Assembly (NCBI GenBank): GCA_965153455.1
Contig: OZ234493.1
Span: 4,278,001-4,342,000, forward strand
Length of the DNA: 64,000 bases
From: Sphagnum compactum
Taxonomy: Eukaryota
Direction: 5' to 3'
Part shown: positions 1 to 59,900 of the stretch, in pieces
Layout of the letters: each line of letters starts with the position of its first letter
How positions within the stretch are numbered: position 1 is the first letter of the stretch
Translations under genes and position numbers: made by a program
The notes under the pieces: generated by a model
What the model was told of the DNA's origin: nothing
What the model saw: the letters and a program-made list of their open reading frames with translations, nothing else
The model's database searches: none

Positions 1-85
1 GTGTCTCATAACCTTCATGAGTGCCACTCATGAAGTATCAGACCATTGCCTTCATGACACATGACAGTGACTAGAAGCCCCAGTG
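1..85 (-). repeat. Intronic structured element, copy X1 (XPO1 intron; truncated by window edge)
   Basis: Reverse complement cactgggg..ctagtcactgtcatgtgtcatgaagg..gtctga..cttcatgagtggcactcatgaaggttatga aligns with 35352-35445. Confidence 0.7.
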
Positions 86-304
86 CATGTCCATATCATA
101 TAATATTCTGGTTAAAACTTAGGCAAACAATTATACCCAAGTCTGCATCCTGGGTTTCAACTGCATTTGTGGAAGCAAAGGGAAGAATGGGTTGAGATAT
201 TGTTAGCACTTCAAAGGCATAGCAAGTACAAACCATAAACAATTACAGCTCTAACGCTACAGGAGAAGGACACACCATGCATTGAGATGATGAATGAAAC
301 TTAC

Positions 305-3300
305 TTGACTGGACAGGGAGAAAAGAGCACGGAAACAATGGCTTGCAATTGCTCGTAGCAAGAAAAAGAATTTCAGTCGATGCTCTGGATAGTCTTCGAA
401 GTTTTTTGTTATCATCTACAAAAAAGTCAAAAGTCAGCAAAATCAGAAGTACCTTCACAACCTACAATGCCCATGTCTAAATGGAATTTAATCGCAGTTC
501 AACAACCTCATCAAATTATGTTTCAGTCTCTCTACTGATGAATTTTACGATCAACACACCTCAAGGGTACATGCAAACACTGCCTCAAAAATTTGTGGTA
601 CATCCTCCAACATAGCTCCCTTCAACCTGCATGACAGTTAGGATAGATCAATCAACAATCCTCCAAGCACCAGGTGGAACATCACATCCCACCATATTTC
701 AAAGTTGAAAGTAGAATGCTCATGAAAAAATGTGGACATGAGGACAAGGTAAACAGACATACTTGTTGATAATGGTTGCAAACAACGACAATACTTCAGA
801 CTCCCGAGCATCAGAAACATTGCGAGCATAGTCACCCAAGATGGGATCCATCATAGCCGGAACAAACTGCTTGGCTATTAGTTCTGTGTCCTCTGCTTTG
901 TCCACAAATGTCTCTATTAACTTCAATGTTTCTCGTTTCACTGACCTGACATTTTCCCAGTGCCAACCACACTCAATACTGTATTGGATTATTTTGGACA
1001 AGATTAAACTGCATACAGATTGTGCATGTACTAGTTTACTTCTTAGAAGAGTGCATTGCCTACTCGCAACAAAAATCACATTAAAACTCCAGATGAGTAA
1101 AGAACCCATGAAAAGTGCAAGACCAGTGAAACCAAGCTTCTCCCAAGTATCACCTCAAAAGCTTAACATAGGAGGTCCGAGATGCATAAGGGCCTCCTTC
1201 AGCAATGCTAGTAGATATGAGCTCGCTGTACATTCTGCACAAAGCCAAACAGGCCAAACACATGACATCCAGACTATGAAGTTGAACAAAGCAAAAGAGG
1301 GAATGAGCAGAAGAAGATTACCTATATACGTTTAGCATGTCCAAGTAGATTAAGGATATTTGTGAGAGGAAGGCCTGCCCAAGGGCACTTGCCACACTTG
1401 TGTTTGTCTGTCAGGAGACAATGGTACCAAAATTAGCTTGAGAGATGAAATACTCTAAAAACTTCACCAATCCATTCCTTTTCTAGCACTAGACCATCAA
1501 AACAAAACCACCAAACTAACATAGCTCATAAAGATATATTAACTATGGAGATGGGACCAGTTGCTCACAGTGCAAATGCCATCCATACCTGTAGTATGTT
1601 TAAAACTGCTCTCACAACTTCTTGGGCCTTTAAAAATTCAACACTCTGGCGAGCCTGACCAATTATTTCTGCCCATCTCTGCAATCGAGCAATCATTGAC
1701 TGTTACAAAACCACCCCAAAAACCAACATAATAGAGATTTGCAAAGGATTTAGGACTGAAGAACTCCAACCTGATTTGGCAATTCCATCAGCTTTTGCAA
1801 GTACTCATCGCGCCTTTGTGGGTCACTTTCTGCTTGAATCATGAACCCCACCTGATGTAGTAACACAAACCCAAGTTATTACCAGTTCCAAGAGGCAAAA
1901 GAGGAATAACTAATGCTGTGAACAGTGAAAGAAAAAAAAAATTTAAGACAGAAGTAATACAGCTTCATAGAATGTGTGGATCTGATGGGCCTCCAGATCC
2001 AGGATGGTTGTTGGCAATCCTTTCAGTAATTCACACACAAATGGCTCTGTTTCTCCAACCTGTTTTGATGATCAATGTCCACAAACTTCAGACTCACAAT
2101 CTCATACATCATACTACCTAGTATTTTGCTGTGTAGAGACATCACTACAAGAAGATGGATAAATATCATCTGGCCATCACGGAATCTTCAGCTGGTATAT
2201 AAAAATAAACCTAACAACCATGCAGAAATGTGTAGGATAGCATATGTTACCTGGAGAATGACAAACTTTCGCCTGCATTTCTGTACAATCTTCAAGAAAG
2301 TATCACATGCCATATCCTGCAAACACCATATGCAAGCTCCACATCACAGACTGCAACTACAAGATGATTATGATGCCAACTGCATAGAGAAGACACAGTT
2401 CCTCTTCATGATCTATGTGCCAAGGCCAACCACCTAACTGAAATCAGAATACTCCAGCTTTAATCCTAGACATTCCTTGAATGAACATACTAACTGCAGC
2501 TGCAGATGGAAAGAAACAAAAAAACACCTGCACACCAGGATGGGTCTCGTGCATAAACTCAAAGAGCTTATTGACAACTGTCTTTAAGAACTTCCAGTGT
2601 GCCCTCAAAAAACGTGGATACTGCCCAACCACATACCTGCAACCACCAACACATTTCAACACCTAATAATTGAGATGTCACTTGCCCATTACACTATGTG
2701 CAGCAGCATTAGTTGTCTTATTTGCTTACCATTTACAATGGCTATACAGTCTGCTAAAGATGTACCAGACATTAGCTAACAGTAGAAATTATAGATCATG
2801 CACAAGCAAACACCTTTGACAACTTCCTTGGTGGAAGGTGAAACTTGTGATATACCCCAACAGTGCCCCAACTGGATGAACCACCCCCTAACATGGTTCA
2901 CTCAATGCCTTGCAACAGTGTCTCATAGGAAGTACATTCAGACAAATGCCATAAACCGGTAGAGTACAAAAGGATAGGTATACATGATGTTGCTGGCAAT
3001 GACAGCCTTGTTATCCTTGCCCTTCGTTATTTCGCACAGATTGAGCAGGTCACGAATGACCGTTACCAAGAACCTATTCTCCTGATCAAGACAAAACCCA
3101 TCCAATCACAACAATTGAATCATTAATCTCAAATAACCAATCCCGAAGGTAAGAAATTCAGAAAGCAGCAGTCTAAAATTTGATCCAGTGAAACCTCCTG
3201 CACATGCAGGAGGTTGAATGTGAAGGTGGCTAGGCCAAGAAGACATAATGTCACAAAAGTAGTATGTATGTAAAGATATTAAGCAGAATTGTACCTGCTC

Positions 3301-6300
3301 CTCAACCATTGATCCTGAAATGGACCCAATTGCCCAGCAAAGAGTGTTCAGATTGTTCCAAGCCCACTCCTCCCCATTCAACTGTTTGTTCAGCTTCTTC
3401 AACATCTGATATAAGCAGGGATCAAACCAAGCAAATCATCTGAATCAAAGTTCAATGTAAAGATTTTCTTGTCTGCTCTTCTTTGGCCCAATGTAAAACA
3501 ACACCTTCATTCAACTTCCTTCACAAAAATCACCTAAATAAAGACAATGCCTCAAAAGCTGTGATCAATCTGAGGGAAAAAGATAGTCCCTAACTAATCA
3601 GACCCAGTAGGCTCCCAAAACAAAATACCTGCTGCTCAGTGTCCTCATGATCAAGATGGGACAAATAAATCAGTGTCTCTCTCATTATCTGCATAGCTCC
3701 ACCAGCAGTTGTTTGTGTGAAGGATAATCACAGAGAAAAACATATCTACGAGAATGCAGAGAATTTTCCACAACGCTTGAAGATAACATGAGAATGAGAG
3801 TGGTCATAACCTTGTGCGAGTCACTCACAAAGTGTCAGACTATACCCTTCATCATGAATAGCAGTGACAAGCTCCCATGACTGCCCACTGACTTAGTTAG
3901 CTCCTGGCAATGGGTGTTGTACAACAACATACCCACCACTTCTGGCAATATTCAAAGAGGGAACATCTACATGTTGACATATTCAGCATAGACAACATCT
4001 GAGGCACATGCAGTCACCTTGTATTGAATAAGGACATCATTATCCTTCATAGTTTCACGCACAATGTTGCCATTCTCATCTTCTACAATCAAAACCTCCT
4101 CAGGTTTTGCCATGCGGCTGATCATCAGTAACCGTAATTTTGACAGAGGCCCTGAATATAGCAGCTTGCGATGGGAAAGCTCTGACCCCAAACCATCTCC
4201 CATTCCTCCTATTCCTATCTGCACCTCCAGGCTTACCTCCTGTAAGTGACTCAGGCCGAAAAATCCACCTTGAGAAGAGACAGACAAGTGAAAAAACAAA
4301 ATTACCTAGCTCACAATGTAGGGGAATCTCAAGTGAGAGTTCAGCAAAGAAAGTAAACCAACATCAATGTCGGAACAAAAGATGTAAGTACAAGAAGCAC
4401 AAAGCCAAGGGTCTGTGGACTTTTGCAAACAACTCTACAAACTACACCAGCCAATTTGAACCAACACAACATAATAATGATGTTGTGGTCACTAACCGCA
4501 ATGGCCAGAAAGTAGGACAGAAAACTTTGAAACAGCTATTTACCTGAAGTCCCAATGGAGCCAAAGCAGGGGCTGCCTCCATGTTGCACTCTGACTGGAA
4601 GAGATCACAAACCAGAGAATTCCAGTAGTCCAAGCAAACCTGGAGAAACCATAACCTGATTTAGAACAACAATAGGATAAGCAAGCCAGCAATATTCCTA
4701 TGATGAAACATCCTATGATACTGACTTCCAGAATGAGGAAAGGAGAAAATTATATCTTTGATCATCCTCAACATAAGATTAGCTCCCACTAGTACCAGTA
4801 AGATCATCATTCTTGAACACTACAGAATCCTCAACATATGAGATATCAGCCACAACATAACTTAAGTTCCATTAGTACCAGAAAGATCACCATCTCATAC
4901 CTTGAATACCTCAGTGTCCTCAACATATGAGATCCCTATCAGATACTCAAGCCCCATCAGTAGGATTGCCTGGTTCTCTTGAGTTGTCTCCAATACACTT
5001 ATGTGCGACTGCCATGGAAACAGATAGTTACCAACAGGGAGGTGGGAAGGAAGGCAAGAGGTCAAACCAATCTTCAAGATATAGCTTTTCCACCACTTAC
5101 ATGCACACACCTTGAACAAATAGACATTGAAGGAACGATAATCATGCATTGGTGGAAATTGGAGGTGAGTCTACATACCTTATAGAATGATGTGAAGAAC
5201 ATCGCAAGATTTTGAATGAAGAACTGCAAGGGAGCAACAAATGAGAACTTGAAATGCATATGCAAAACCATCTTATTTTAGAGAGTGCCAGAGCTTGCAC
5301 TTGTACCAAATTCAATGTGTGCATCTGACATAAAGGAAAAAAGATGTCATACCTGGTCCTCATCTGAACCACTTGCATAGGCCTTTGATACATCTGTACC
5401 AGGTGGCAGAATAGTCTGCACAACCATTTCAAAACAACACTCTTCACTGACATGCCACATATGCTCAAACATCCGCAAGCGGAAAAATTTATGTTTAGCA
5501 AGTTTGCAGAGACTTGTGAGTTTCTATTGTGATTCAAGAGACCTCTTTTCCTCTCCATTAGGAACTTCAACTCAAAAAGCCTGATAGAAAGGCCTAGATG
5601 AACTAAATTGATAACCCTACGCTGTTATGTCGGGACTCCTATCCATCTCACACTAAACCCCTCAAGCACACCTAGATGTAAAACCAATAGAGTACCTGCA
5701 GCTGCACCATGAAGATGGTGTGAAGCTTCACAAACTGGGCATCATAAAAATCCCCAAAACTGAGCACTGCCACCTGTACCAGTCAAAACTCAGATTTGCA
5801 CCACCCAAAGAAAGGCAGCCATAAGGTATTCCATGCACACAAACTATGAAGGGGTAAGTAAAAACAAAGGATGAACCCAATGAAAGAGTAAAATAAGTAC
5901 TTCTAAAAGCACTCCAAAATTACCTCCGTAAGGCACTGAAGAGACAAATTTCTGTAGCTTGCCACAGGGAAAAGCTTCAATAAGGTCTCTAGCTGCACAA
6001 CAGATGGACAGATGGATGTCAGATAAAGCTCCATCAAAGCTCCAACACATGGTCCAGATTTTCTATTACCGTGCACATACTAAAAGTTAGTTTGAATGGA
6101 AAGAAAACCACTCCTATATGAGTCAATGACATCAAATATTCCTGGAAAAGTGGTCATGCCTTTGGAGCCTGCATAGAAAGAGACTTGGTGGAAGAACAAA
6201 TAGTTACCAGTGGTGATTCAAAAATGTAGCCAAGAGGGATCCAAGATAAAAAAGCATGTAAAGTGGACAGGGTGGCTCGAATCAGTTCAGGGCGCTGGGA

Positions 6301-9243
6301 AATGGAAAGAACATACTGGCAAAGCTCATGTACAAGCTGGAATTCACTGCAGCAGCCCACCCATAACCATTTGTCTTTTATTATCCACTCATTAATATAC
6401 ATACCCAGCCCCTCTGTGAGTTGACTACTTGTTGGCATTTGACTGTCTCCATAACGACCCATGACCCATCTCTAGGAGAGACTTAATTGAGAACTTCTGA
6501 CAACATATTACCATCAGTGAACAATCTCCAAGGAATAAAGATTACACTCATCAGAGTTTTTACATAAAAGCAGAAGAACTAAACAATTTGAACACTAGCT
6601 GGAGCTGGCACAACTGAGAACCTAACCCTACACTGTAGGCATCCCCTGGTTTTAGAGCCGATCTCTGTGGCACCCATTATCTTTGGAGGTCACCCATCCC
6701 AAGATCATGTTCAACCTAGGATCTTGACCTTGGAGTTCATATGGAATCCTATGTTTCGCTAGGCTGCACCCACAAGCGGGCATATTTCACTGATACTGGA
6801 GAGAAGGGTTGGCATCTGCACCTGTTTAAAGAATTCTTCAACTCTTTGATCTTATTTTGAGTCATCTCACCCCGCGAGAAGTCAAATACTTCCTCACTAA
6901 GAAGCTGCCATCACACAACTGTCTAGTAAACTAATGTGTCCTCATTATCAATTCCAAAAGCAATCCACTAGAAATCTTGCAACTTCAAAGAAATGTATAC
7001 TGCATACTGCAAAAGTGATTCTACCTACAGGTAATCAAAGACAATGGAAAAATGTTGAAGACATACCTTGAGAATGACCATGCAATTTTCACATAAAGTC
7101 TCACTACTTTTGGCAGCTGAAACAAGATCAGGTATAAACCTGGGCCATCGAGCAGGCCATTCATGCTTGAGAACCTATACACAGTCCTTGTTTGACATTA
7201 GCAAAGTACACAAAGAATATGATATCCATATAAACCCCTCCTGAGTGTATGCGAACAAATGGTGTCTTCTTCTTGAAAGCTATTAACCTACATGCACAAG
7301 CAATGCTCCAGGATACATCCCAATATGAATTTCCTGTAGGAAACTAGCTCTAAATGGTATCCAATCCACATTCCCTGCGTCTTTGTAGAGAAGGAATTTG
7401 ACCACAAAAATCTGACAGACCCACAATACATTCCTTTCTGGGCCAAAAAAACTAATGATTCCTATTCTGCCTATCAATAGTTTGCACATTACTAGAGGGA
7501 GGAGCCACTTGCCTGCACCAGAATAATGTTCAACTTGTTCACATAAAGCCGCTCAGTCCGAAATGACACTTCATTGCTTGAAAGCTGTAAATCATCAGTT
7601 CAGAATAAGAGCTGATTAGAAAGACTTGATAGGGACGGTCAAAGCAATCAACAAAGACACCTGACTACATGCAGATAGAAGGATGGACAACAGAAACGCT
7701 CTAGACTAATAATGCACAATAGATAAGATGCACTTTTGTTCAAGGCATTATACAGATGTTGCAAAAGCTGACCTGCACAATAAGATCTGAGATGTAGTTT
7801 TTTATGCCATCGCGTTGCTCAACAGGCAATGCATTCCATCGGTACTTTATCACTCCTTCCAGTACCTGTATAGATAACATCAAGAGCCAGACTGCTAAGG
7901 AAAATGCCAGGGCTGGACCAAAAACAGTTTGACAGTGTAACAGTTTGGAACAGTCTACGGTTTGAAGTGAATGCATCTCCAGCTTCGGTGGCAAATTCCA
8001 CACCTAATAGTCAATCCTTACCCTCAGAGCATAGAACTTTGAATTCAGATTCTGAGAATTTTGAAGAACAGCAACCACCCGTGTCCATGTATCAGGATGC
8101 TCTTGGAGCTGCCTCAAAACTCTTTCTGCTGCAGCCCTCTGCAAGTCAAAATAATCCACACCGATACATTAGGTCTGTTTCCATGTGGATGTTCTTGTGC
8201 TTCAGAATCTCTATACAACAACAATTGCAGTCTCATGGGGGCATGAGGCCACAGCAACGTTGAAGAATCAGCACAAGGGCTTTCACAGGTTCCCTTAGCA
8301 AATAAGGGCATTGCTAAACCCTTGCCTAACTTATGCCCCTCAGTGGATTAAGAATGAGTACAAAGAACGCTGAAGGTGAGCAACCCAAAAAAATCCCCGA
8401 GCTTGCCCAAAAATGAGGGTGGAAACGTGAGTTCATCAGCCTCAGCTTCTACAAGTCAGTTGCAGAGGTCGAACGAAATATCACAACCTTCGAGATGATG
8501 TAAAGATCAAGAATGAGCAGTTGGACAAGCTGTCCGGCTTGACAACAATAGAGGTTAACAGCTGCGAACCAAGGCCACTTTGAGGACCTTTAGGGTGATA
8601 AGAAACCTCAAGAAGAATGACATGGTGAGACGAGCTTCAATCGCCATTGACTCGAGCAAGGTTGCCAAAGCCAACCAAGTAATTGAAGGCCAAAGATTCA
8701 ATAGACCCAATAAAGAATGAAATAAATTTCGAAGAAGGGGCGACGAGACGTCTATCGCAAGGCCAAACAAATCTGGTAAGGCCAAAGGTGGGAAGTCCCT
8801 GAAGACAAGCCGAGAAAAGGGAAATAGTGCGACAGATCGAGAAGAGTCTTAATAGTGAGCTCTCCTGATGGGGCTCTCCCCATGCTCGGTGGCTCGAACG
8901 ACAAAACTCTGCCACCGAGTTCCAAAAATCTCTACCAGTTCCTACGTCTTGAGAATTGCACAATGTAGCAACGTCGGACCGAGGAGCATCCAGCAATCTT
9001 TGCAAGCTCGAAAAAAAGAAGAAAAAGGGACGGAGAAACCTGTTAAAAATGGGTGGCCTAATCTTCCTAAATGCAATCATGTCTCCAAGAACGCTACTCA
9101 AGCCACAAATTCTTCTAGAACCCTTCTAGGTTGGCATATTGAAGAACCTCATGTTTGGAGCCAGTGCCGTAAAATGCCGCTACTGTGGCATCGAGAAGGC
9201 CGACGTCGAACGGCTGAGTGAAATCCAGCAGCTTCTCCGCCAT
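305..9243 (-). CDS. XPO1: Exportin-1/CRM1 nuclear export receptor; 27 exons (~870 aa) in the window, 3' end beyond position 1
   Basis: Exons 9243-9148, 8138-8022, 7865-7773, 7584-7513, 7174-7067, 6904-6822, 6346-6208, 5992-5924, 5773-5696, 5415-5353, 5223-5179, 5008-4901, 4639-4544, 4218-4018, 3688-3629, 3405-3295, 3081-2984, 2636-2528, 2316-2251, 2059-1961, 1851-1771, 1678-1589, 1407-1322, 1234-1154, 945-763, 626-560, 415-305 join in frame. Motifs [89 protein letters not shown] second in-frame ATG lies at 9258. Confidence 0.97.
3791..3915 (-). repeat. Intronic structured element, copy X2 (XPO1 intron 14)
   Basis: Reverse complement aligns colinearly (one gap, roughly 70% identity by eye) with 35327-35452. 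Confidence 0.8.
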
Positions 9244-29970: not shown

Positions 29971-31065
29971 CAACAAGATTCAACTTTTAAAAATAATTTG
30001 CACAATAAATACCAACAAAAAAAATGAGGAAGATTACACATTAGATCATCAAGTTAATCATAGTCAATAATGGAAAAAAAATTGTTACAAACCTTCTTCA
30101 TATATTTGAAACAATTCATCCTCCAATATGTACAAATCTTCCTATTAACATGTCAAAAACTAACTAATGTTATTATGTAAAAAGATTTCATAGGCTTATG
30201 ATGATAGAAAAACAATTAGAATTTGATGTTGTAAACCTAGTTGAGTTTAGTCATTCATTTATTTCTAAAACACATAAGGTGAAAAAAGCCTTTAATTGAT
30301 TACTTTCAATCACACGTTCTAATCTCTATTAAATACCTATATATTTGAAAGGAAAAAATCCATGGACAAGGTAGTTGTGAAGGTTTTTTAAAAAAAAAAG
30401 ATGAAAGGAAGAAAATTTTAAACAAAACAAAAAAAGTAATGGGTTTGGGGATTACGGTGGATTCTGTAGCTCAAGAACAACTAAGAAATGCATTAAAAAA
30501 TAATTCATTGCAATATGGTGTCCAATGGTTGTAAATGAAACATGTGATCAATTTCACCAAAACTTTTAAACATGCTTGTGAATAGCTTCACATATATAAA
30601 TGGGTGTGAATCTTGGATGCGCAGTAACAACACAATAAGAGGTTAATCAACAAGCATGGGTTAATCAATAAGTAAGAGGGCATTAAGTAACAATGCTGCA
30701 ACCTTTTATTGAGTAATTAAAAGCGAGAGAAGTGTGTCACCATTGGGTCCAACAACAAAACGTAATTCAAAACACTAGGACAAAACAAGAAAAAAAACAC
30801 TTGAAACCACTAAGACACAACCAAAAGGAAGTTTTCAAAACCATCGAAACAAAACCAAGATAAACTTTTGAGACCATTGAGACAGAACCTAGAGAAGGCA
30901 CTTGGGACCATTGCATGAAAAACACAAGTGCAACATAATGCAAGTGCAAGAACACAAGAATGCAATGTAACACAAGATCACAAGCAAGAGAACATTTACA
31001 ACTTTTGAGCCTCACAAAAAGGAGGAAAGAAACTTGAGAGCCAATTGGTGACGAAGGAATGTCAA

Positions 31066-31380
31066 GCTTGGAAACTAGTTCTAAGACTTTGAAGCATTTG
31101 GGTTTGAGACTTTGAGATCGCCCACAAACTTCAAGCTAGGAGAGCAATGAGTTTGGTGAACCCATTACTATCAATTTCCAACCTTCAATTGTTTTAGATG
31201 TAAGTTGCATGTTAAAAATGAAAGCTTGAAAACTAGTTTTAAGACTTTGAAACATTTGGGTTTAAGACTTTGAGATCACCTGCAAACTTCAAGCTAGGAG
31301 AGCAATGAGTTTGGTGAACCCATTACTATCAATTTCCAACCCTCAATCGTCTTAGATCTAAGTTGCATGTTAAAAATGAA
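31066..31380. repeat. Tandem duplication, ~157-bp unit x2
   Basis: aagcttg.aaactagtt.taagactttgaa...gttgcatgttaaaaatgaa repeated at high identity. Confidence 0.92.
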
Positions 31381-32647
31381 TGATTATATTTGGGACGATG
31401 GAAGGTAGGTAGCATACATTAAGTAAAACATGCATGTTTAGTTTTAGGTGGTTTTGTAAACTATTATCGATTGTCATGTGTTTGACTTCAATTAATTTTA
31501 TTTATTTTTCCACCCAAAACTTTAAAAAGGCATATCTTCCTCAAATTTCACCCGTTTTGAGCAAATTAAAGGGCTTTGGGTGCACCCTATAGTTGTCCAC
31601 ATTTTGTCTTCAAACCTCAAAGATAGAGGAGGCGGTTTGGGCGAAAAGGGAGGTGATTGTTGTACACTAAGTGTTCGGACATTAGCCTGCGTAGCCTTAT
31701 GCATTTGTACCCTAAAACATCAAGTCCCTCGTCAAATCAATTGATTAGCCTAATTTCAAGAAAAAAGTAAAAACCTAAATGCTTTAATTTCACTCAAATT
31801 CCAAATCATTTTGCCTCATAAACTTTTCCATTAGCCTACTACCCTCATACCATGGCAAGTTCAACAACATTACAATATCAAATATCACATTAAATTGGTT
31901 TTATTTTGAAGATTCATTCTAATGTCAAGATTAAAAATTAAGATAAAAATCCAAAATCATGTAAAAACATTTTCTAGTTATTTCTTTCACAAAAAAATTG
32001 TGTTTCGCAAAAATGACACACATTTCTGAATTTAAATGATATAATGAATGTCCAAGCTGCCAAGGTACTACAATATTTAGAAAGGGAAAGTGGAGGGGGT
32101 GTGTCACACTGTGGCAAAAAAGAAGAATTATGAAAACTCAAATATATCACCATGCAAAAATATAATCTTCAAAGTAGCAAACACTCACATATATACTAAT
32201 CAAAAGAAAACTAAACAAGAAATTTTTTAAACTTTAAAATAAAAATAAAAATAAAAATCAATCCTCTAAAAGAAACCAAAATCTTTCAAATTATTATATA
32301 ACTCTTGTAACTAATCTCAAGTTTCAACACAAGCCAAAAATATCATGTTTCAAAAAAATCCTCATATTAAAAAAAAAGGACGTATTATTTATTTATTTAT
32401 ATTATTATTATTACCTAGGGGCCTATAAAAATCCCCTTAAGCTACTATACTCTATGATGAATCTAAACGGGGGCGTTTAGGGTTTGGATCTAGATGACAC
32501 CCCCTTCCCCTCCCTCCCTCCCTCCCCCGTCCACGCCCGATTTCTTCTCTCGCCATCTCTGTCCTCGTCCCCTTTTAGTTAGAAATATCCCTTGCCGTGA
32601 ACCACGATTAGGAGGAGCATCTTGCGATTGAAGAAAGCCTCGGAGCG

Positions 32648-35600
32648 ATGGTTGTCACCAAAGTGACTTCTACAGGTATATTCAAGAAGAGACAGCGGCT
32701 GAATTCTCCGTCCAAACTCGATGATGACTTTTTACTCGATCTTACTACCGAGGAGGAAGAGAGAGAAGGAAAAGACGTGCTGAGCTTGTTTTCTCCTTCC
32801 AGGTCGAACGGTCTCTTCAAATCATACTGTAAGTAAGTAAGTAAGTAAGTGAGTGAGTGAGTGAGTCTGTGCTTCGCATTGGTTTCATAAGCTGTAAGAA
32901 TTGACTCAGCAAGCAGGAGTTCTGATACCGCGATCCGCTAGTTTACTGAATTTCTGTACAGCAGCACAATATATTGGCGCTAATCTTTTTTTTTTCTTTG
33001 AAATTTCGTCCCTCTCACCAACGTAAGCTACTGTATGGCAGTCAGATCGAAAGACAAAGATTCTTTTCCATCTTCAAGCTCATCTTCTGATCATCAAGCG
33101 GAGGTATCTGGAATTGACAGACTTCTGGACGAAAATGAGGTAAGAAAAACGTTGAGCCTTAGCCTCAGATGCTACGAACAAAAATCATTTAGTTTACTAT
33201 GTTAATTCTAGCCTGGAGATACTTATATGCTAGCTAGATATGTCTTTGTTCTACACCCTTCTGTTGTACCAAATTCTCAGAATGTGTCTTGGTTCATCAT
33301 AGCAGAGAGACTTGGGAGATCATCAAAGTGAAGAGACACAAATTGGCGTCTCTGGTGCTCAGGGCTGGCTTGGAAAGCATCGCAGTCAATCAGTATCTTT
33401 GAGGTTCACTCCTGAGTGGATTGAGGTGCAAGCAGATGACTTGGATGAGTATCTTTGTGTTCAATGGCGTCTTGAGGAGATTCATCTACTTGAATTCTAC
33501 TACAAATGTGAGGATGCTGTAAGTTGGTGGTTGCAGAAAATCTCTTCCCTGTAGTGTTGATGTCAGATATTTTGAACAACCCAACCTGAGCCTGAATCTT
33601 TGAATTCTTTCACTTCAAATTCTGGTCACTGATTCTTTTCATTGGTTTCTGAAAAACTGAACCTGATTCTTGATGCCACATTTAAGTAAAGAGTTGTGGG
33701 TAGTACATCTGCCATCCTCACATATTGTGTGAGTTAGGGTCTATGGATAGTTTTAACTTTGTGAATTAAGGTTTCAACTGTCTTATGGAATTTGTCTAAA
33801 ATGGTGATAGAATCATGCTCTCCTCTAGTTGTCTAGAGGTCATCCCTTAATGCTTAAGAGCTACTTCTTTGATGTTGACAAACATTGAGGAACTTGTCAG
33901 TGTGCTATCAATAACAGTTAACGCTCCTCATTGTCACTTTTGGATGCCAGTATCTGAAGGATGAGGAAAGTGCAATCATTGCCTTCAAATTTCATAAATC
34001 CAAAGACTTTCTTCATGGACAGTGCTCTGAAAACGTCTGCTTTGATGTGAATGGTAAGCTTTGGGGGTTTTCCTGCTGGGGGTGGATGATGGGTCTCACC
34101 TTCCAACATAGAACTGAACAATGATCTGTGGCATCCATGAAAGGGCTGAATGTTCTTTTCCTTACACAGATTCATACGTGCTGGAGATTTCCAGGTGGGA
34201 GTGGGTCTCACAAGAGCAGCACATTCTGGCGTTGTCAGCAAGATATGGGGACATTTTGCAGCAGCTAACTAGGTTTGTGACCAACATTGGATCTGGTAAT
34301 CATCCCAGAGAGACATGTGGCAGTTGCTTGCATGTAACCTCTTATTCTCATTCATTATGTTGCCATTGGGTATGCAATATCCAATGTTCAGGTTGTGATT
34401 GGAAGAATCTTGTAATGTGGTGACTAACTTTCAGCATCATGCCATATGGTCCTGCAGTGAAAAGAGAGTTATGGGATACAAGGAGAAGCTTTTACAATCT
34501 ATCCCACAAGAAGTGACAGACAGTGTGAGGTCATTAACAAGGCACTGAGCTCCAATAACTTCTGCTATAAGCTTTTTGTCCTTTATATAACAATAGAATG
34601 CTGCTGTGTTTGCAGCAGATAAAGGGGTTTAATACCATTTGAAAAGTTTTTGAAATTTGAGTACTTATGTGTATTTGAACTTGTGTTTTGTTTTCCAGAG
34701 ACAAGTGGTGGTCATCAGTTGTTCTCTTAGTAACTAATGAGCCTGAGGAGAGATGTGGTTGATTAAAAGTGATATTTCCTATTTGTTTTCTGTATACTAC
34801 AGCAGGTTTACTCAATCAATTCAAGCTTTTGAGGTGCTTACGTTTCCTCAGAATGATCCAGATGCTGTCACAATCACACAGAAGGACATCCAGAGGCTCA
34901 AACCAAAGGAGTTCCTGAATGACACAATCATTGACTTCTATATCAAGTGAGAAAACCAAAGTTAGTTTGTCTTTGCTTGCAATGTGTGTAACAACCCACA
35001 TTGATGGGTGGCAGGCCTTGAGGGCGTTCATTTGGCTGATGCCTGCCACTGTGGACCATTGAAAACATTAGAGTAGCATGCACATTTAACAACTGTATTC
35101 TTGTTAATACCTACTGTGTCAGGTCTCTTCAAGCTGGCCATCAGAAGCTTGTTACAGCTTGAATGAGGATACTATTGACCTTTTTGATTAGTTGTGTCTT
35201 GAGTGCTATCCAATGTCACGAACAAGTCTCTCTGTGGCTTCTGGATATGCAACAGAAACTCAGGACACAGATTATGGTATAAATTGTTTGCCCTAATTTA
35301 GAGCAAGTTATGATATACTACTCTATGCCCACTGTTGGGTCCTGATGAAGTCATTGGGGAGGAATGGCAGCTAGTCACTGCCATTTGTGATGAAGGTCAT
35401 TTGTCTACCATATTGTGAGTGGTTCTCTCAAGGTGATGATTGCACTCATTCTTGTTGGTTTTGTTTTGGTTTGTCCAGAACTGACACAGTAGTTATCTTC
35501 AAAGTGTCTTCATGGAATTTTTTCTGCAATCTCATGGACATTTTTTGTGTTTATTAGATTAAAGGCAGTTCTTTCATGATGTGTGGAATAACTCTTGGTG

Positions 35601-38235
35601 TTGTTGAAGTGAATCTATACTTTTTAGTTCCAGTGTTTACACCCAGTATCAATGCTGCTGTTAGTCGAAATTGTGACTTTCTCATGGAGACATGCACATC
35701 AATGACTAGCAGAGATTGTTTTTTAGCTCCAGCTTATTTGACATGCATTGCCCTGTTGTATAGGTTGTAATCAAAAGTCTAAAGCAATGGTCTTTGTACT
35801 GCAGGTTCTTGCAAAGTAAACTTACTGCAAAGAATAAAGAGAGGTTCTATTTCTTTAACAGTTTCTTCTTCAGTAAGCTTGCTGATGATGACATGATGCA
35901 TGGCAAGGCTGCATTTGCACGGGTAAAAAAGTGGACGCGGAGAGTCAAGCTTTTTGACAAAGACTATGTGTTTATCCCAGTCAATCAGAGGTGCAACTTC
36001 CATCTTTTGTTCAGTTGTTTTGATGGTTGATCTGACCAACTCTGTATATGCAGGTGCTTGAGACATTTGACAGTGCTGAACGTTTTTTCAGTTCTCTGTT
36101 GGAGCATGTACATTTGCATTTATTTGTATCCTGTTTTTTTGCAGTTTACATTGGAGCCTCATTATCATATGTCATCCAGGCAATATTGGAGGCTTATCAA
36201 GTGAGGATCAGTAATAATGCTGTAATTGGCAGCAATATGCCTCCTGATACTTTGCCCAAATTCTCCTGCTGATCTGTGTGTGATGGTAACCTTGAAAACA
36301 AGTAATGTTCTGTCACTTAGCTTCAACCTTTTGACTCATTGAGCTAATCAATGCAGAGACAAGTGGTTTCTGCATGGGGATGCCTTGCATATTGCATCTC
36401 GACTCTATGAAAGGCAGCCACTTGGATGCAGGAGAAATCATCAGAAAGTGAGTACAGTTATGAGTTTCATTCAGTCAGCATTTCTGGTGTTCAATGACAT
36501 TGGATTGTCTCCTGGTGATGAGGTCATGCACAAAAATTGCTTAACATGGAAAATTTCCTGTCATTTGTTGATAGATCTGGAAGTGAGATTTGGGAGAGTG
36601 TCCCATTTTTGTTATGAAACCGTGCTTCTGTAGTTGCCAAATCTCCTGTGTCACATCTACAATTATAATGCAAATGCAGTTATCTGTTGGAGGAGTGGTT
36701 TGAGAGAAGTCATCAAACAAACTTGAGTATGGAACAAACAGAGGAGCTTTTTTCTCAACTGCAGTGTATCTATGCACAGGTAAACTCTTTTTGTACCACA
36801 GGTTAGACTTTCTGTCTGCTAGTCTTGACTGTGGATGCAAGTTGAGCCTGTGAAATGTCATGCATCTTCATTTGCTTGTTGTGGCAAAGTTTGCAACTTG
36901 TACAATCATGTATGCTTTTGCTGCCCACATATCAGGTTCCCCAGCAAGACAATCTCTGGGATTGTGGTCTTTTCCTCTTGCATTATGTGGACTTGTTTCT
37001 GAAGGCAGCCCCTGTGGAGTTCAGCTTGTCACGAAGTCATGGTTTCCCATATTTTGTGAGTTGGTGACCTGACCCCTTTTGCTAAAATTCTTTGTCTCGT
37101 AGATATATGATATCTTGTGGCTGAAAGAAGGATCTCAGCCTAATACCTCTTGTATTTTCATCAGCTTACAGAGAGTTGGTTCAAACCATCAGAAGCATCA
37201 GGAAAGCGAGCAGATATTAAAAGGCTTATTCTTGAACTCAGTGGAGATAGCCCATCAGTTGAGAAGGCAGGAAGTGAAACAAGTAACTATTCTCAAAGTT
37301 CTCCCTTGACCATGGGAATGGAGATTGTTGCTCTATCCAACTGTCAGCCCTGTCCTTCTGATCCTCTTTCACAAAAGAGTCCAGCAGAAGTGAGTTCTGA
37401 TATCAAAGAGGGAATTGAAGTTTGTGGTGCAACTTTGACCCCAGAGGTCTGCCATTTTCCTGAAGAATGTGAGTATTTGGACAACTTTGAGGTTATTCAA
37501 AATCATTCCAGTGTCACAGAAGACCTGTCTAGTGAGATTGCTACTCATCAACCAACCTTAGGTAGCAATGTCATACTGCTCATGGAAGAAGATGACTGCA
37601 CACAACAAGGTGTGAGCTGGGATGTTCTTGATTTCCCTGTATTATCCCCAGTTCGTCCACTTCAGGTCCCTGGGTTGTTTAATGATCCTGTGAGCATGGA
37701 GGAAGATGCAAGTGACCTTTCTGCCTACCTATCAGTGATGCCTACAAGCATCTTCAGTGCTTGCAAGGCAAGTGACGAGAGCATGCACTGTTGTTCAGTG
37801 GAAAAAAAAAAGACCGATCAAAGGCAGCAAAAGACTTTGATTGGTCTTACCAGATTGGGGGAAGACCTCTTCCACAACGTATCAAGTGAAACTACCTTGT
37901 CAGACATGAGCTCCAATTTTGAACTTGAGAACAGGCCAGCCAACAGCAGAGGAAGGAAATGTATTGTGGAAAACCCTCTTGAGATGTTTGGAGGGCAAAG
38001 AGTAGAAGAATTGAGGGTTTCAGCTAGCATTCAAGATATTGAAGAGCTGTCATCAGATGATTCTCTTGATGAGTGGGAGAGAAGCAGAGCAAGGAGATCA
38101 CCAAAGTTTGCTCCCCAGATTGGCAAAAGAATGACAAGGAGTAAAACTCAAAAACCCAGTCCCGATGTGAAGGAGGAAGCCAGGCAAGCTGCCCTGTCAT
38201 TGTGCAAAGAGAAGGCAAAGAAGCGGCTTAAGTAA
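32648..38235 (+). CDS. ULP2: ULP2-type (SPF1/SPF2-like) SUMO protease, peptidase C48
   Basis: Exons 32648-32828/32832, 33042/33046-33139, 33306-33518, 33918-34053, 34170-34272, 34458-34529, 34806-34946, 35805-35990, 36145-36200, 36357-36447, 36680-36779, 36936-37055, 37165-38235. Motifs DPDAVTIT..EFLNDTIIDFYIK, FNSFFFSKL, IPVNQSLHWSLIIICHPG, ILHLDS, PQQDNLWDCGLFLLHYV give an intact His-Asp-Cys triad. Confidence 0.92.
32829..32866 (+). repeat. (GTAA)5(GTGA)4 compound microsatellite at the exon 1/intron 1 boundary
   Basis: gtaagtaagtaagtaagtaagtgagtgagtgagtgagt read directly. Confidence 0.95.
35327..35452 (+). repeat. Intronic structured element, copy U (SUMO protease intron 7)
   Basis: cccactgttgggtcctgatgaagtcattgggga-aatggcag/ctgccatt hairpin-tgatgaagg..ttgtgag/ctctcaa hairpin. 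Confidence 0.8.
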
Positions 38236-41200: not shown

Positions 41201-41987
41201 TTTACCCTATACACTAACCATCCATCCTTCATCGTGCACTCATGGGTGCTGGTTCACTCTGACCTATTTCAAAGGTAAACATTTGCATAATGGCACAACC
41301 CAAATGAGTTTGATTTTGGTATAGCATTTAGGAAGGACATATTAATGGATAATGACAGGGAAGTTGCGAATCTCTTTAAGCAAAGAGCAAAGGGCTACTA
41401 TCTTCTTGATTCTCTTCCCCAAGATCAGTTGTGAACATATGCACTGTGTGAAAGTGGAGGCAGATCAAGTCCAGTTCCAACTCTCATCATCTCATCCACA
41501 ATCTGCATATGATAAAGGAAGAAATTTGCTGAATTGGGATTAGTTAATCATTGTTTATCATGCACAACCTGAAGTATTGAGCTGATCCACAAATCCAGTG
41601 ATCATAATTGTTCAGTGGTCTAAGGTGATAGAGATAAAAGTTTTAGTTTAGTATAGCTATAGCTCTCCTTTAATGAAGGCTGCACTCATACTTGTGACAG
41701 TCTCTTGGGGTCCCACAACAATTCCCTTCCAAGTAGCAGAGAAACCTAAAGACTTAAGTAGTTTAATAATAGCATCTGCTAAAGTTCATGATGCAAGCAC
41801 AAAATGGTCATGACAGCCTAGAATATCTGCCATAATACATCACTTCTCCAGAACACTAGATGAGTCTGTAAGCCAAGACCAAATATTGAAGAATGGTCTT
41901 TGGCTGTGAACAAAGCACACACCCCAGCTGGGACTTTGGAGTACTTACAGACATCAGTTTTTCAAGGAACTGCTGGAACATGGTCAA

Positions 41988-44900: not shown

Positions 44901-45353
44901 GGTTGTGCAAAGATCAAAGAACAGACATAGAACAAAAGTCGTGAAAGCACGACGAGAAAAACAGCAAAGGAAGCAGGCATCGGCTACCTTGCGATAATTT
45001 TGCTTGGGAATTGATGATGCGAGACCAGGAGAAACAGCATCAGCATGGGACGGTGGAATGAACTCCTTGGCCAGGGGATTAAGTTTCGTAAGGAGCTCTT
45101 CCAGTTCCCGTATACTGTCATTACTGTCGGCATCCAGTGCACCTACTTCATCATCCGCCCTGCTCTCGCGCACGCCATTCTCGCCATTCGCTTGGGGCAT
45201 TTGCGCTTGCCTTGCCTGCTGCTGATCCCGAGGAGGGTTAGCATACAGCTCATCTACTCCACTCTGCTGCACGTCTAACGAGAGAAGCGAAGAATAGTTT
45301 CGTGCCGTCGTCGGAAGCAAGTTCACCACCAGTCCCATTTCAGCCACAGCCAT
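41988..45353 (-). CDS. CTC-interacting domain (CID8-13 class) poly(A)-binding-protein interactor: PAM2 + two RRMs (~333 aa)
   Basis: Exons 45353-44988, 44862-44755, 44285-44241, 44149-44077, 43934-43822, 43456-43397, 43229-43182, 42994-42926, 42253-42192, 42045-41988. PAM2 KLNPLAKEFIP; RRTVYVSDIDQQVTEEQLA..CGDPNSVLRFAFVEF; RTIYCTNIDKK..HSTRIAFVEF..IRVSPSKTPVRPR. Confidence 0.93.
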
Positions 45354-53918: not shown

Positions 53919-56900
53919 ATGGCTGCGTCCAATTCACAAATCCCTGGTGTTCGCTCTCATTTTAAGACCCCTGAGGGTCGTTATAATTTGTCTCATGAGA
54001 AGACTCATCCGACCGGCCTCCTGCACTACAACTTCGGCAAGGTCACAACTCAGGTATGCAACTTCTGTTATCCCACTCCACATGTGAAGTTTGACTCCCG
54101 TGGACGTACGATGCCTGTGAGGAGTATAGTCCAGTCCCAAGGACTGCTTTCGTTTTTCTGCACATTAGGGCACGTGTTTTGGTTGGAAGAAGGAAATTCT
54201 GTCAATTCTGTCAATGTTCTCCTAGAGCCTCGTTTTTGATGGCATACTTGTTGGAATCTGGCATCCAAAATTCATGTGGACCCTCTATGTTGTTCTCATT
54301 TTAATTGGTTTTGCATTCTCAGCTCATGGAGTGTTGGTATTCTTGTTTGATTGTAGCACCTTAGGGGGAAGGAGAAAAGGTGGACATTAGATAACACTGA
54401 TGTATTTCTACTGATCACCTCATAGAAGCCAAGATGATGAGCTAGATTTGCGCGGTTGTGGTACATGTTGTGTTTCACAGTTGTCTTTGTGGTTTTTCAA
54501 TGCAGTGAATTGGTTCTGTTGTTTCTTTGCATTAGGGTTATTTGCATTTCAATTGAGGGAATGTATTTTATTTTATTTTATCCAAATCATTGCACGGCAG
54601 GTTGATCAGCACACACTATAAGGAGCATGCTGATGTTGAAGCAGTTCTATGTGCTCAATAATTTTAGAAGAACATGTAGGCAATGAAAGAATGCAAGTTG
54701 GAAGGGTGACAGTTGCTACGTTGCAAATGGTTGAGAGCAGGTGACTTTGGCACATTTGAAGGATAAGCCAGCACAAACGCCAGCAAATAGTACCAGCTCC
54801 AGTGCCAGTGGAGGGGTTAGGTTCACGACAAGACTGTTGGGGGCAGGGAATGGCAGCAGAGGACTTGGCTTTGGAGGGGGCAATGGATTCACTGGTAGGC
54901 TTAGTGGGACGAGCAAATCAACAGCAATACCCATCACAGGCATGAGCTCAAGCAATGGTCCTATGACCTCTAGTTTTGATGGAGAGGGCACTTATCTTAT
55001 TTTTAATGTGGGCGATGCACTTTTTATCAGTGATTTTAACTCACAAGACAAGGCAAGCATTTGTGAACTCTTACTCAGTCAGGTGATCAGCATTAGGATT
55101 GTAAGAAGGTTGGTACAAAGTTATCAGACAGATTAGGTCTATGTCATACTGGAATGCTGGAATACAATTTGGGATGACCCACACACTCTGTCATGGCTGT
55201 AATTTGTACTCTTTGCATAAAATACCTGTGCTTACCAGATATTATGCCCTCTTGGAGGTTCCAGGTCTTGACTACTGGGAGCTGCTTATTGAACTTTGAT
55301 GAACTCTGTTAGTTATTTATCAGTGTATTGTCGAGCATTATTGACCAGCCATGTTTTTATCCTGCTTCTCTATTTTACTGAGCAGGAGCCAATTAAGATC
55401 ATTCACTTCAACTCTGCCAATCCAGTCTGCCATGCGTTTGATCCAGAAGCAAAAGATGGCCATGATCTTCTGGTTGGTTTGAATTCGGGAGATGGTGATT
55501 ACTTATATCCTTCCAAATTCTTTTCAATATCTAGATCAAAGCTTACTATTTTACTGGTTAGCTACATTCTGTTGACCGAACTGTTGAATGTGCAAACTAG
55601 CACACCATTTTGGCCCCTTGCCTTTGCTTGTCTGAATGATTTGAGCATTTGATTCTATTCATTGGCTTGTGTGCATCTGGAACCTTCTTTTTACAAGATT
55701 TCGCATGGTGATTGTGGAACAGTGTACTCAGCATCTCTGAGACAACAGTTGCAGGATGTGGGAAAGAAGTTGGTGGGAGCTCTACACTACAACAAGGATG
55801 GGTCTATCAATGGCAGGTACATTCTTTCTCAGCATCTTTTTGTAAAGTTTCATAGTCAAAAACTGATATGCTACCTAGTTTTTGGTGTGGTATGTTGTAT
55901 GGAGCCAACAGCTGGTTTGACTTCATTTATTGCAAGAATCCCGATGAACTAGGCAAAGATTAAGTAATGTTGTTAGGCCCACATTTTGGTCTGTTTCTAG
56001 GAATCAGTAACATGATTGCCTTTGCCAGGCTTTGCCAGGCTCTGCAGCTCCATTGTTGAGTGATGCATGCACAACTTGGATGGAAGAACTTCCTGCCAGA
56101 ATGTTTCTTTGATCTATATTCCTTTTAGAAGCATTTTCTAGTGTCAAGGTTTTTTCCATCCTACCAGGTTGTCTGGTTTCCTGTTGACTTTTCTGCTGAG
56201 AACATAATCCAAATCAGTTAGGTCTGTTTGAACAAGAGTGTTAGCATGTTTACAAATTCTGATAAACCTGACTTCATACCAAGACAAGAGACTAATGAGG
56301 AACCTTGTTGGTGGTGCAGCCGTTGCAATGCAGTTGCATGGGTGCCAAATGCAGAAGGCCTCTTTGTGGCAGGGCATGCAGATGGCAATGTCTATGTTTA
56401 TGATAAAGTGAGTGGCATGAAGACTAGTGTGCTCTCTGGTGAATCCTTTGTTGTCCATGGTTTTGCATTCTTGTTTTTAGATGTTCATTACATCATTCTA
56501 CCGGGGTTTTTTGCCAAGTAGAACAGTTGTGTTATCAGGGTGTCACAAAGTAAGGCAAGATCAGAAGACAGGACCCTTGACTGTGAACATGTGCGAGTTT
56601 GTGGCAGAGCAAAGATGGGAGTGGAGATGTACCATTCCCACCTGTAAAAGATACCACCCAGTTCTCCATTTCTCATGCCAGGTCTAGCAAGGTAATTTCA
56701 CACTAAGCAGCAGCTCTTTCCAATTCTGTTTGCATTGTGAAACTGAAGTTGGGCCAAGTGAATATTGTGCTCCTTGGTCTCAGTGGTTGATGCAAATACT
56801 TATGCTTAGTATGACCATGTCTGATGATATGCATGCCTATCAAGATGTCATGAGTTAGAATGGACCATCATCCTCTTGTTTAATTGTGGTAGGTCAAGTG

Positions 56901-59900
56901 TAGAAACTGCCACTGGTCTTCACAGCACATGGATTGCATCTTCCATTTAAGCAGCTTTCTGGTCCTTGAGTGCAAATGGTATTTTGGTCTTTTCCAAAGA
57001 GGTTTTGTGTGTTCTTTGCACGAATGGTTGATGCAGAGCAACCCAATTGCGAGATGGCACATCTGCCAGGGCTCAATCAATGGTCTTTCATTTTCACCAG
57101 ATGGCAAATATTTGGCAACAGTTGGCCGGGATGGTATGTCTGTTCCATTGTCATTTCTTTTTCATACTTTTAGGAGCTCTCCCTGAGTGTTGGATGCCCA
57201 TTTCATTTAGCAATCTCATACTTCTTTCCTGGAATGTCCTTCAACAGAAAACTGGCACACTTGCCCAATTGGTTATAGATCCTGACAGTGTGGAGGGAGT
57301 CAACACTAAAGTTTTGGGGGGAATTATATTCAGAAAGAAAAGCTGTTGGCTACTTACAAAATTGTTGCATTACTGGTCTGGATGATGAGTGTGATTGCAC
57401 AATCTTTATGATTAATGCTAATTTAGAGTGCAAAGTTGGTTCACATGGAATTAGTCACATAAATAGATGGCCTTCACATTCCATCTAACAGAAAGTGATA
57501 CACAATTTTGTGGGTGACAGGCTATTTGAGGGTGTTTGAGTTTGCGAAGGATTTACTGGTGTGTGGTAGCAAGAGTTATTTTGGTTCTCTGCTCTGCTGT
57601 GCATGGAGGTATCCCAACATTCAACCCACCAGATTAATGTCACAGTGAGTTGTAGGTTTATCTAGAAAATCATTGGGTTTTTAGACCTGCTGTTGATGAA
57701 GTCAGTGGGGATGTTATGGTAGGTGGTTAAAACCATACTTAAAACTGTTACTGTTGAAGGTCCCTGAATATGCAGTTACTGTCTGTCATTCAAGGCTCCC
57801 CAGTTTTTTTTGTGGTCTTGTTTTCTCTTTTCTTTACGGTTATGTATGCTCTTTTTCATGTTTGCTGTTTGATTGCTGTTATGTTGTCAGTTTTGAAATA
57901 TTCATAATCTTGTTATCAGGTATCCTCTCAATTCTGTTCAGGTACCTTAAGTTGTAACTAGTGAGAAATTCTCAGTACTATGAAGTATTTTCAGACCTGC
58001 ATGTGGATTATTGTTAGCCATCTCATCTCACATGATGTGATGCAGTGAATAATTTTTTTAAAGTTTGCAATATGCTCCTGGAAGATGGTTTGTTTTGTCC
58101 TCGCGTTGTGGAGGCTTGCAGTTCTAAAGTTGTCTTCATTTCTCAGATGGTTAGTCTTATTCTCCTTCTGAAGAATTAGGCTATCCTCTAAAGATTCTCT
58201 TAAACAGGATTAGAGGCTCTCTCAATAAAAAATTCTTTTTGAAATTTCATTGTTTTGAGTTGTCTGAATGATCAATTATAGAGTTTTGTAAGTGGGGAGC
58301 TTTTTGAAGTCCACTTGGTTCTCATTTCTCTTTTTCTGTTTATTCTGTTTTTCTCTTCCTATTGTGTGTACTTGTTTGTTTTTCACCCCCTGTTGGGAGC
58401 CAATGAAGTCACTGGGGAAGTTGTGATAGATAAGTTGCTATCATACACCTTGCTGTTGATGGTCTGTGAACAAGTGTGAGACTGTTACTGTTGTTCATAC
58501 TGCATGCGTTTGAATTTTTTGTATATTTGTACTAGTTTTGTCCCTTTTGTGTTGTTCTTTCTTCCCAATTCTATAAGTCCTTATCTGGAAATCTTTCTTT
58601 GACTTAAAAAGAGAAGTTTTAACCTTGTTCTGGCTTTCTTAAATGTAGAGAATGGAGATCTCTTGATGCTCATGAGAGTTGTATCTTTTGTTTTTCTCTC
58701 TATTTTTCTCTGTATTTTCCCCTTCTATGGTGTTTGGTGCTAGCCAGTATCATGGCTGAGTCATTTCTTCCGGACTCGTGACAGAGACTCAGTACACTTG
58801 CCTATACCCCCTGTAGGGAGCTGATGAAACCATTGGGTAACTTGTGATAGATAAGTTGCTATCATGCATGTGACTGTTGATGGTCCCTAAGCAAGTGAGA
58901 GATAGTCACTTTGTTCATACTGCTAGTCTTATTGTTCTTTTTTCAAGTTCTACCCTTGTGTGTATTTCTTCTTCCCAGTTGTTCAGTCTTATCTGGAAGC
59001 CTTTCTTTGACTTCAAGGAAAGTTTTGAACCTTTTTCTGGCCTTCTTAATCATGAGTGTGGAGATTTCTCAATTCTTGTGAGAGTTATATATCTTATGAG
59101 TATGTTTAATATTGTGGAGGGTAGCTATAGGACTAACTAGAGGGGTATGGGACAGTCCCGATGGGAAATACGTATTGACTGGAGGCGAAGATGATTTGGT
59201 TCAAGTTTGGAGCATGGAGGACCAAGCTGTAGTTGCATGGGGGGAGGGCCACAACTCTTGGGTTGGTCTTGTCCTTCTTCCTTTATTTTGGTAGAATTGT
59301 TCCCACCAGACTCCATTTGTTCAGGAGTTCCCAGTCATTTTCCCTTCTAAGGCCAGCTAAGACTTGTTTTTTGTGCACAAACCTGGAGCATCGATACACT
59401 CATTATGTGGGAAGCTTGTTGTAAGGGTGAGGAAAAACATTCTGTAGTCTAGTATGGAGTTTTCAAAGGGAGCATGAGTCTTATCAATGAGTGCCAGCAG
59501 GTGAGGTGAGCTGTTAGGTGCCCAGCTTGTCATATTATCTCCTAAGCATTAGATCAACCTACTAACGTTCATGAAAGTTTAGCTTTATGACCTTCTCTTT
59601 GACTTATTTTAATGTAAGGTTGATTGGGTTCATCTGGATGCATGACAGGTTAGTGGGGTGGCCTTTGATCCTTATTGGGAAGCACCATCCCCTGATACTG
59701 GGGCTGGTGAGACTACCACTTACCGTTTTGGTTCTGTAGGTCAGGTATGCTTCTTTTGAGACACTTGCTTGATGTCTAGAGATTGGCATGTTGTGAAGTG
59801 TGCATTGCAAAAGGCTAAACATTATGGAAATTTGAAATAGTATAGTTGTCTACTTTCATCAGAATTGATGTGCTTTTGTTACACAGGACACCCAACTGTT

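Follow-up and report, generated by a model that had tools for sequence, protein, structure and literature searches.

Six sense-oriented intron segments of the moss Sphagnum compactum are very probably remnants of a Penelope-like retrotransposon

Introduction

How do homologous and seemingly structured segments come to lie in the introns of three unrelated genes, always in the direction of the host transcript? The question is raised by a stretch of 64,000 nt of the Sphagnum compactum genome (GenBank assembly GCA_965153455.1, contig OZ234493.1, positions 4,278,001 to 4,342,000, forward strand; hereafter the window). An earlier note, made from the sequence alone, had recognized six such segments here: two in the exportin gene XPO1 (X1, X2), one in a SUMO protease gene of the Ulp1 type (U) and three in a WD40 gene (W1, W2, W3). 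It saw in them a mobile or dispersed intronic RNA family, either derived from small nucleolar RNAs (snoRNAs) or related to splicing. Our analysis points to a different origin. The six segments are very probably decayed, 5'-truncated fragments of the 3' untranslated region (3' UTR) of a Penelope-like retrotransposon (Penelope-like element, PLE) with many copies in this moss and in related species. They are assigned to a 3' UTR because the family to which they belong shows one common 3' end, 5' truncation, target-site duplications (TSDs) and an upstream open reading frame (ORF) for a reverse transcriptase (RT). The mobile or dispersed, intronic and sense-oriented character of the segments holds, as does their covarying hairpin, and the description now extends to more than 100 further copies. 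The snoRNA or splicing RNA does not: Rfam offers no match, a terminal stem is lacking and the segment is continuous with the RT ORF. The segments thus match part of the interior of a transposable element, the very outcome that the earlier note had set against its own proposal.

Results

Further copies were gathered by scanning metagenome contigs with a motif common to U, W1 and W2, for which no chance match is expected in the window. At least 120 contigs carry the motif, giving 121 copies in about 107 loci once near-identical loci had been merged (imperfectly, since at least one duplicate pair, L029/L032, remained). The element-bearing contigs encode plant genes, with Pfam matches to GRAS, PPR, SCAB-PH and ALE2_N. 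The copies fall into three subfamilies: A with U, X1 and X2, B with W2 and W3, and C with W1; many copies of subfamily B are 85-95% alike.

The aligned copies have the anatomy of a retroposon. In pairwise alignments of loci 1592 right ends fall in the bin +230..239, the next largest bin holding 537, and the left ends are scattered. Copies accordingly share a 3' end about 235 nt downstream of the motif (...ATGAAAGATAT), without poly(A), while the points of 5' truncation vary. TSDs are directly visible in two loci (15 nt in L117, 19 nt in L089). By crude automatic end calls, flanking repeats of at least 9 nt occur in 10 of 39 copies, eight of them 15-22 nt long, as compared with 1 of 39 in a displaced control. 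The absence of TSDs remarked on in the earlier note therefore describes the old copies of the window, where none was found by eye, and not the family, which has TSDs of 15-22 bp. Shared homology reaches 1.35-1.78 kb upstream of the core in five loci, and this upstream stretch holds an ORF that ends about 213 nt before the motif and includes the motifs SFDFSTLYTKI, GIPMGTNCAVYLANFYLF and RFVDDLFV. As a separate observation, locus L026 contains two copies in the same direction 2.1 kb apart, and L035 and L052 have a second partial motif just upstream, an arrangement that fits the formation of pseudo-long terminal repeats (pseudo-LTRs).

The enzyme is recognized through homologues of the ORF. With the ORF as query, 271 proteins are matched at E<=1e-3; the best of them (8.9e-62) is 40% identical along the full length of the query. 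Among the 120 of these 271 homologues that were listed, 56 carry RVT_1, 17 GIY-YIG and several PF26215. A GIY-YIG domain is N-terminal (residues 27-229) in four of seven homologues scanned with Pfam, one of which has RVT_1 at residues 706-934. In a GIY-YIG protein of 1105 residues the query aligns to residues 604-900, that is, to the C-terminal RT part. The Atlas neighbours of the ORF, proteins of Chlorophyta, Mollusca and Cnidaria, have RVT_1 or HTH_animal domains. The most complete copy (L010) begins at about residue 178 of the best homologue (P0001). PLEs of the Naiad/Chlamys clade are built in this way, with a GIY-YIG domain at the N-terminus and an RT at the C-terminus, as given in the accessible parts of Craig et al. 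(2021, PMC8557442). According to the same parts, 5' truncation is frequent, partial tandems give rise to pseudo-LTRs and head-to-tail insertions can be multicopy; canonical hammerheads are lacking, and there are non-autonomous derivatives that have the 3' end in common.

The family is high-copy in the species of the window. With reads placed along 30001-50000, the two bins over U have a raw DNA depth of about 17 and 11, where their surroundings have about 0.5-1, and in two related species the contig word depth over U is 3384 and 1707 against about 45. Assembled contigs break at the borders of the U element, as fits a repeat. In one relative (species B) a contig spans 35368-36337, and this species therefore has the 3' half of U, if not more. 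Poly(A) RNA covers U to a depth of 64 and 54 in sense and of 0.9 and 0.45 in antisense, with 4-9 in adjacent exon bins. Most of these reads fit U in part only and therefore derive from other copies.

Within the window, the homology of the six segments was corroborated by blastn among the copies and by a profile built from all six. Identity is 72% over 125 nt between U and X2 (E 2.6e-17), 73% over 75 nt between U and X1 and 76% over 45 nt between U and W3; the cores of W2 and W3 agree at 81.5% over 119 nt, and W1 and W2 at 67% over 101 nt. The profile recovers the six and no others in the window of 64 kb (E 1e-33 to 7e-15); its next match has an E of 0.33. The homologous units are longer than the 80-130 nt originally ascribed to them (for example U and W2 in Table 1; blastn). 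U and X1 have about 125 extra bases upstream in common, their homology beginning at 35202 in the alignment, and 23 copies of subfamily A place the family positions of about -217 to +240 on 35131-35595 (blastn). Family RNA reads part from the window sequence upstream of 35141. The 3' part of X1 is cut off by the start of the window. W1, W2 and W3 all lie in one intron, and W2 and W3 are not insertions in separate introns but form a head-to-tail partial tandem: W2 ends at 58678 and W3 begins at 58684, and the two units are 75% identical over 306 nt. Truncated at about -400, W2 contains the end of the retroelement ORF and the entire 3' UTR.

Table 1. Family copies, host introns and host domains in the window
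Feature	Position	Strand	Remarks
Copy X1 (subfamily A)	3..261	-	XPO1 intron; family positions -195 to +100; blastn, alignment with U
CRM1/exportin domains	723..8003	-	Pfam on ORFs
Copy X2 (subfamily A)	3725..3972	-	XPO1 intron; family positions -80 to +200; blastn
Ulp1-type protease intron	34947..35804	+	GTGAGA...CAG; about half is copy U
Copy U (subfamily A)	35131..~35560	+	family positions ~-217 to +240; includes reported core 35327-35452
Central hairpin of U	35363..35385	+	AATGGCAG / loop / CTGCCATT; read from sequence
Peptidase_C48	35764..36027	+	downstream ORF of the Ulp1-type protease gene (Pfam)
WD40	56893..57183	+	Pfam on ORFs
WD40 gene intron	57609..59155	+	GT...AG; about 75% is W1-W3; 57608 to 59156 joins in frame
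Copy W1 (subfamily C type)	57694..57868	+	old fragment; family positions -2 to +167; blastn with long copies
Copy W2 (subfamily B)	58105..58678	+	family positions -400 to +239; nine long copies in blastn
Copy W3 (subfamily B)	58684..59090	+	family positions -165 to +240; 5'-truncated at ~-165; blastn

All six copies lie between exons, and all six are sense, because Pfam domains fix the strands of the three host genes; in both respects the first description was right. X2 is located between ORFs with CRM1_repeat_2 (3970-4305) and CRM1_repeat_3 (3109-3435). In the protease gene, 34946 joined to 35805 reads in frame as ...DFYIK|FLQSKLTAKNKERFYFFNSFFFSKL (the continuation of the junction peptide is also given as FLQSKLTAKNKERFYFF). 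The splicing of this intron rests on frame continuity, its junction not being among the RNA-read joints listed. On the reading as PLE fragments, the window copies have no function for their hosts and have merely lengthened three introns.

Two further observations stand by themselves. A block resembling a tiny exon is common to U (35240-35280), X1 (140-170, minus strand) and subfamily B, at family positions of about -110 to -85: a polypyrimidine run, CAG, 21-24 nt and then G|GT. It might be the donor of a 5'-UTR intron of the element (cf. Penelope and Chlamys-3_cRei in the accessible parts of PMC8557442) or a decoy exon. On the XPO1 strand there are also two weak matches to the upstream part of the retroelement family, 9605-9657 (77% over 53 nt, E 2e-5) and 10334-10475 (61% over 148 nt, E 4e-4), which may be additional old fragments or T-rich chance matches.

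The strand bias, which the six window copies could only suggest, is borne out family-wide. ORFs of at least 135 residues were taken within 4 kb of the elements with the family sequence masked (199 ORFs from 55 loci), and Pfam scans of the first 150 gave 23 distinct loci with a supported gene. The element lies on the strand of that gene in 22 of them (binomial p 5.7e-6), the sole exception, L003, being placed 1.5 kb past the end of an Exo70 gene; by tally, the bias is present in all three subfamilies. Base composition tells the same story, given that in each of the five genes of the window that Pfam supports the sense strand has more T than A. In masked flanks, T exceeds A in the direction of the element at 84 of 98 loci (+300..1500) and at 61 of 65 (-1500..-300). 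The skew is found at 53 of 76 loci at 1.5-4 kb and is gone at 4-8 kb downstream (21 of 47). Long retroelements in genes are more often antisense-biased. The first 20 nt past the 3' end, which represent the duplicated target, have a skew of 0.29 versus 0.08-0.13 further out (48 copies); the target is T-richer than its surroundings, and we therefore conclude that T-rich targets are preferred in a strand-specific manner. Roughly calculated, such a preference alone would give a modest bias only. Something further is probably required, either that antisense copies are lost or that there is a connection with transcription.

The central hairpin, too, has stood up to a larger sample. What was counted is a hairpin that we named ourselves, not one predicted from the alignment. 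Its arms are ATGGCAG/CTGCCAT in subfamily A, GTG(A/G)TAG/CTATCAT in B and TATGGTA/TACCATA in C, the outer pair and two inner pairs being altered on both sides between subfamilies. Across 105 sequences 88.5% of 811 hairpin cells pair, against a shuffle mean of 82.2, and 73 cells show double changes, against 16.4 in shuffles; none of 500 shuffles was as high in either measure. Shifting the partner by 1-3 columns lowers pairing to 16-70%, and in subfamily B there are 82 G:U cells versus 7 A·C cells. Pairing and double changes above shuffles thus hold across the three subfamilies. Taken singly, five of the six window copies show no folding beyond that of shuffled sequence, whichever strand is considered, X1 being the exception (sense-strand z-scores of the six: -0.76, -0.01, -3.13, +0.31, -0.01 and -0.29).

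The window also holds other repeats and a small RNA gene. The region 32118-32468 is a very high-copy repeat, with contig word depths of about 72,000 and 63,000 against about 45 and a raw DNA depth of about 250 against about 1. RNA from this repeat shows a strand bias (59 versus 2.3) in the direction opposite to the protease gene, and a short mobile element immediately upstream of that gene is the likely identity. Further repeats at 39339-40005, 40673-41339 and 46676-47342 have DNA depths 30- to 90-fold up in the species and its relatives. A single 5S ribosomal RNA (rRNA) gene (22293-22408, minus strand; Rfam 46.4 bits, E 1.7e-6), with no visible tandem array, adjoins a gene with an RRM domain on the same strand (22745-23185).

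Discussion

Several points weigh against the reading of the segments as PLE fragments. The element's own ORF pieces have no direct Pfam match, and a PDB sequence search with the ORF matched no solved structure. Pfam finds no GIY-YIG domain in the gathered copies, all of which are 5'-truncated; sequence relatives suggest that the element has one, though the family may equally represent a form without a nuclease of its own. Attachment to the ORF is seen for subfamily B only. Subfamilies A and C were traced only to about -120 to -220 and may be short non-autonomous derivatives. The search motif forces ATGAAGTCANTGGGGA and TGANGGTC, which makes the conservation of both blocks uninformative. The covariation of the hairpin amounts to about three events at the level of subfamilies, relatedness inflating the counts, and RNAalifold predicts 0 pairs on the gappy alignment of the 105 sequences. 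Finally, the repeat at 32002-32668 also has strand-biased RNA, so that an RNA strand bias alone cannot separate read-through from the host gene from transcription of the element itself.

The alternative that survives best stays within the world of PLEs. U, X1, X2 and perhaps W1 would belong to a non-autonomous retroposon resembling a short interspersed nuclear element (SINE), with a 3' end taken from an autonomous PLE and moved by the PLE enzyme, as is MRC1 in Chlamydomonas. Copies of subfamilies A and C have never been seen joined to the ORF, their homology stopping at about -120 to -220, and Craig et al. report, in the accessible parts of their paper (PMC8557442), non-autonomous Chlamys elements whose 3' end is like that of autonomous ones. 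However, the sample consists of pattern-matching copies on often short contigs, and old subfamilies may have lost recognizable upstream parts. The loose ends of RNA reads upstream of 35141 show moderately consistent further sequence in other copies, and ARAGORN finds no tRNA-like head in the window. We consider this variant possible, if on balance rather doubtful. A SINE derived from a tRNA was tried separately and rejected, there being no tRNA in the window (ARAGORN) and the upstream part of long copies being an RT ORF.

A host RNA family processed from spliced introns, whether derived from intronic box C/D snoRNAs or some other non-coding RNA, is by contrast very improbable. Motifs resembling UGAUGA and CUGA do exist, about 65-70 nt apart in all three subfamilies, the copies are intronic and sense, and the hairpin covaries. 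The C/D-like layout goes no further: there is no terminal stem between the boxes and no complementary flanks, the boxes vary, no guide is conserved, a C' box (a second UGAUGA) is present in subfamily A only, and the UGAUGA block is itself forced by the search motif. Rfam yields no match for the whole window at the gathering threshold, nor for U and the W intron at E<=10. The best snoRNA-type matches reach 14.9-20.7 bits against gathering thresholds of 40-50 (Afu_198, 14.9 against 40). Scans of the window, U, the W intron, nine loci and a young copy returned just the 5S rRNA elsewhere and matches at chance level. The continuity with an RT ORF, the TSDs and the 5' truncation, together with folding like that of shuffled sequence in five of six copies, are likewise at odds with a snoRNA.

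Nor can much credence be given to introner-like elements, that is, to a repeat which made these introns by inserting with its own splice sites. The copies are confined to introns, sense and of a T-rich, intron-like composition, and internal motifs resemble splice sites (GTAAGT near -270; polypyrimidine-CAG...G|GT at about -90 in U, X1 and subfamily B). However, the ends of elements and introns differ (35131-35560 versus 34947-35804 and 57694-59090 versus 57609-59155), and TSDs with ragged 5' ends are typical of reverse transcription. Least credible of all is a hammerhead-bearing pseudo-LTR or retrozyme with CUGAUGA as its catalytic core: CUGAUGA is present and canonical PLE pseudo-LTRs carry hammerheads (accessible parts of PMC4209133), but Rfam finds no hammerhead in the window, in nine whole loci or in scans of U, the W intron and a young copy at E<=10, the sequence as read has neither a GAAA box nor a helix II directly after CUGAUGA, and Naiad/Chlamys PLEs are reported, in the accessible parts of PMC8557442, to be without canonical hammerheads.

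Under the preferred reading, fragments of an abundant PLE, known PLE biology suggests how the copies would have arisen. The element would be transcribed, and its RT would copy the RNA from the 3' end into a staggered target nick. Synthesis would often halt early and so leave a common 3' end, ragged 5' ends, TSDs of 15-22 bp and occasional head-to-tail pairs such as W2/W3. The covarying hairpin would belong to the RNA of the element and be retained by selection on active lineages; we infer that the constraint acts there and not in host introns. In the PLE PAc of anoles, reverse transcription begins within a stem-loop of the template RNA, as described in the accessible parts of PMC11167929, and by analogy the moss hairpin is most likely a site that the RT recognizes or at which it starts. 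Part of the sense bias would stem from the strand-specific choice of T-rich targets, and most of it from the disappearance of antisense copies or from a connection of integration with transcription. A more far-reaching scenario, which we judge unlikely, is that of a lineage specialized for transcribed genes: transcription, or the non-template strand, would guide integration, so that new copies would arrive almost solely in sense, their T-rich and intron-like sequence would be spliced out harmlessly, the hairpin would serve as the handle of the RT, and the family would be a major undescribed driver of intron growth in mosses.

What looked like a new intronic RNA family is, on the preferred reading, transposon debris, and similar sense-oriented intron repeats in this genome are best compared with this family first. 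PLEs with an N-terminal nuclease have barely been reported from mosses; here one that probably belongs to them is high-copy and makes up half to three quarters of two host introns. Two points deserve the attention of specialists: how large the family is in a moss, and that beside genes its copies lie almost exclusively in sense. Whether the bias arises at integration or by selection bears on the target choice of a poorly understood class of retroelements. A literature search, with subscription journals mostly outside its scope, returned no report of a moss PLE family or of a sense bias of PLEs.

Comparison with known systems

The family differs from the two host-related systems that it superficially resembles. 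Like plant intronic box C/D snoRNAs it is intronic and sense and has UGAUGA- and CUGA-like motifs; unlike them it is a segment of a retroelement of at least 2 kb. With the introners of algae and fungi it has in common that similar sense sequences occur in the introns of unrelated genes, but the moss elements lie within older introns, whose splice sites are not theirs.

Among PLEs, the anole PAc, a canonical Penelope/Poseidon element, is comparable in the target-primed reverse transcription proposed for the moss family; it has a C-terminal nuclease, a hammerhead and a 'tail' of 30-40 bp. In the moss family the hairpin is set about 170-200 nt back from the 3' end. The non-autonomous Chlamys derivatives of Chlamydomonas, MRC1 among them, are short, end in the 3' end of an autonomous PLE and occur in head-to-tail arrays (accessible parts of PMC8557442). 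They are a possible model for subfamilies A and C, the window copies showing no sign of current activity. The closest likeness is to the Naiad/Chlamys PLEs themselves, with which the family shares a homologous RT, 5' truncation, head-to-tail partial tandems, genome-wide dispersal and a large number of copies; like them, it lacks a canonical hammerhead. It differs from them in its moss host, in its targets, which are T-rich with duplications of 15-22 bp and among which no microsatellite was seen, and in a strong sense bias near genes that the accessible parts of PMC8557442 do not describe.

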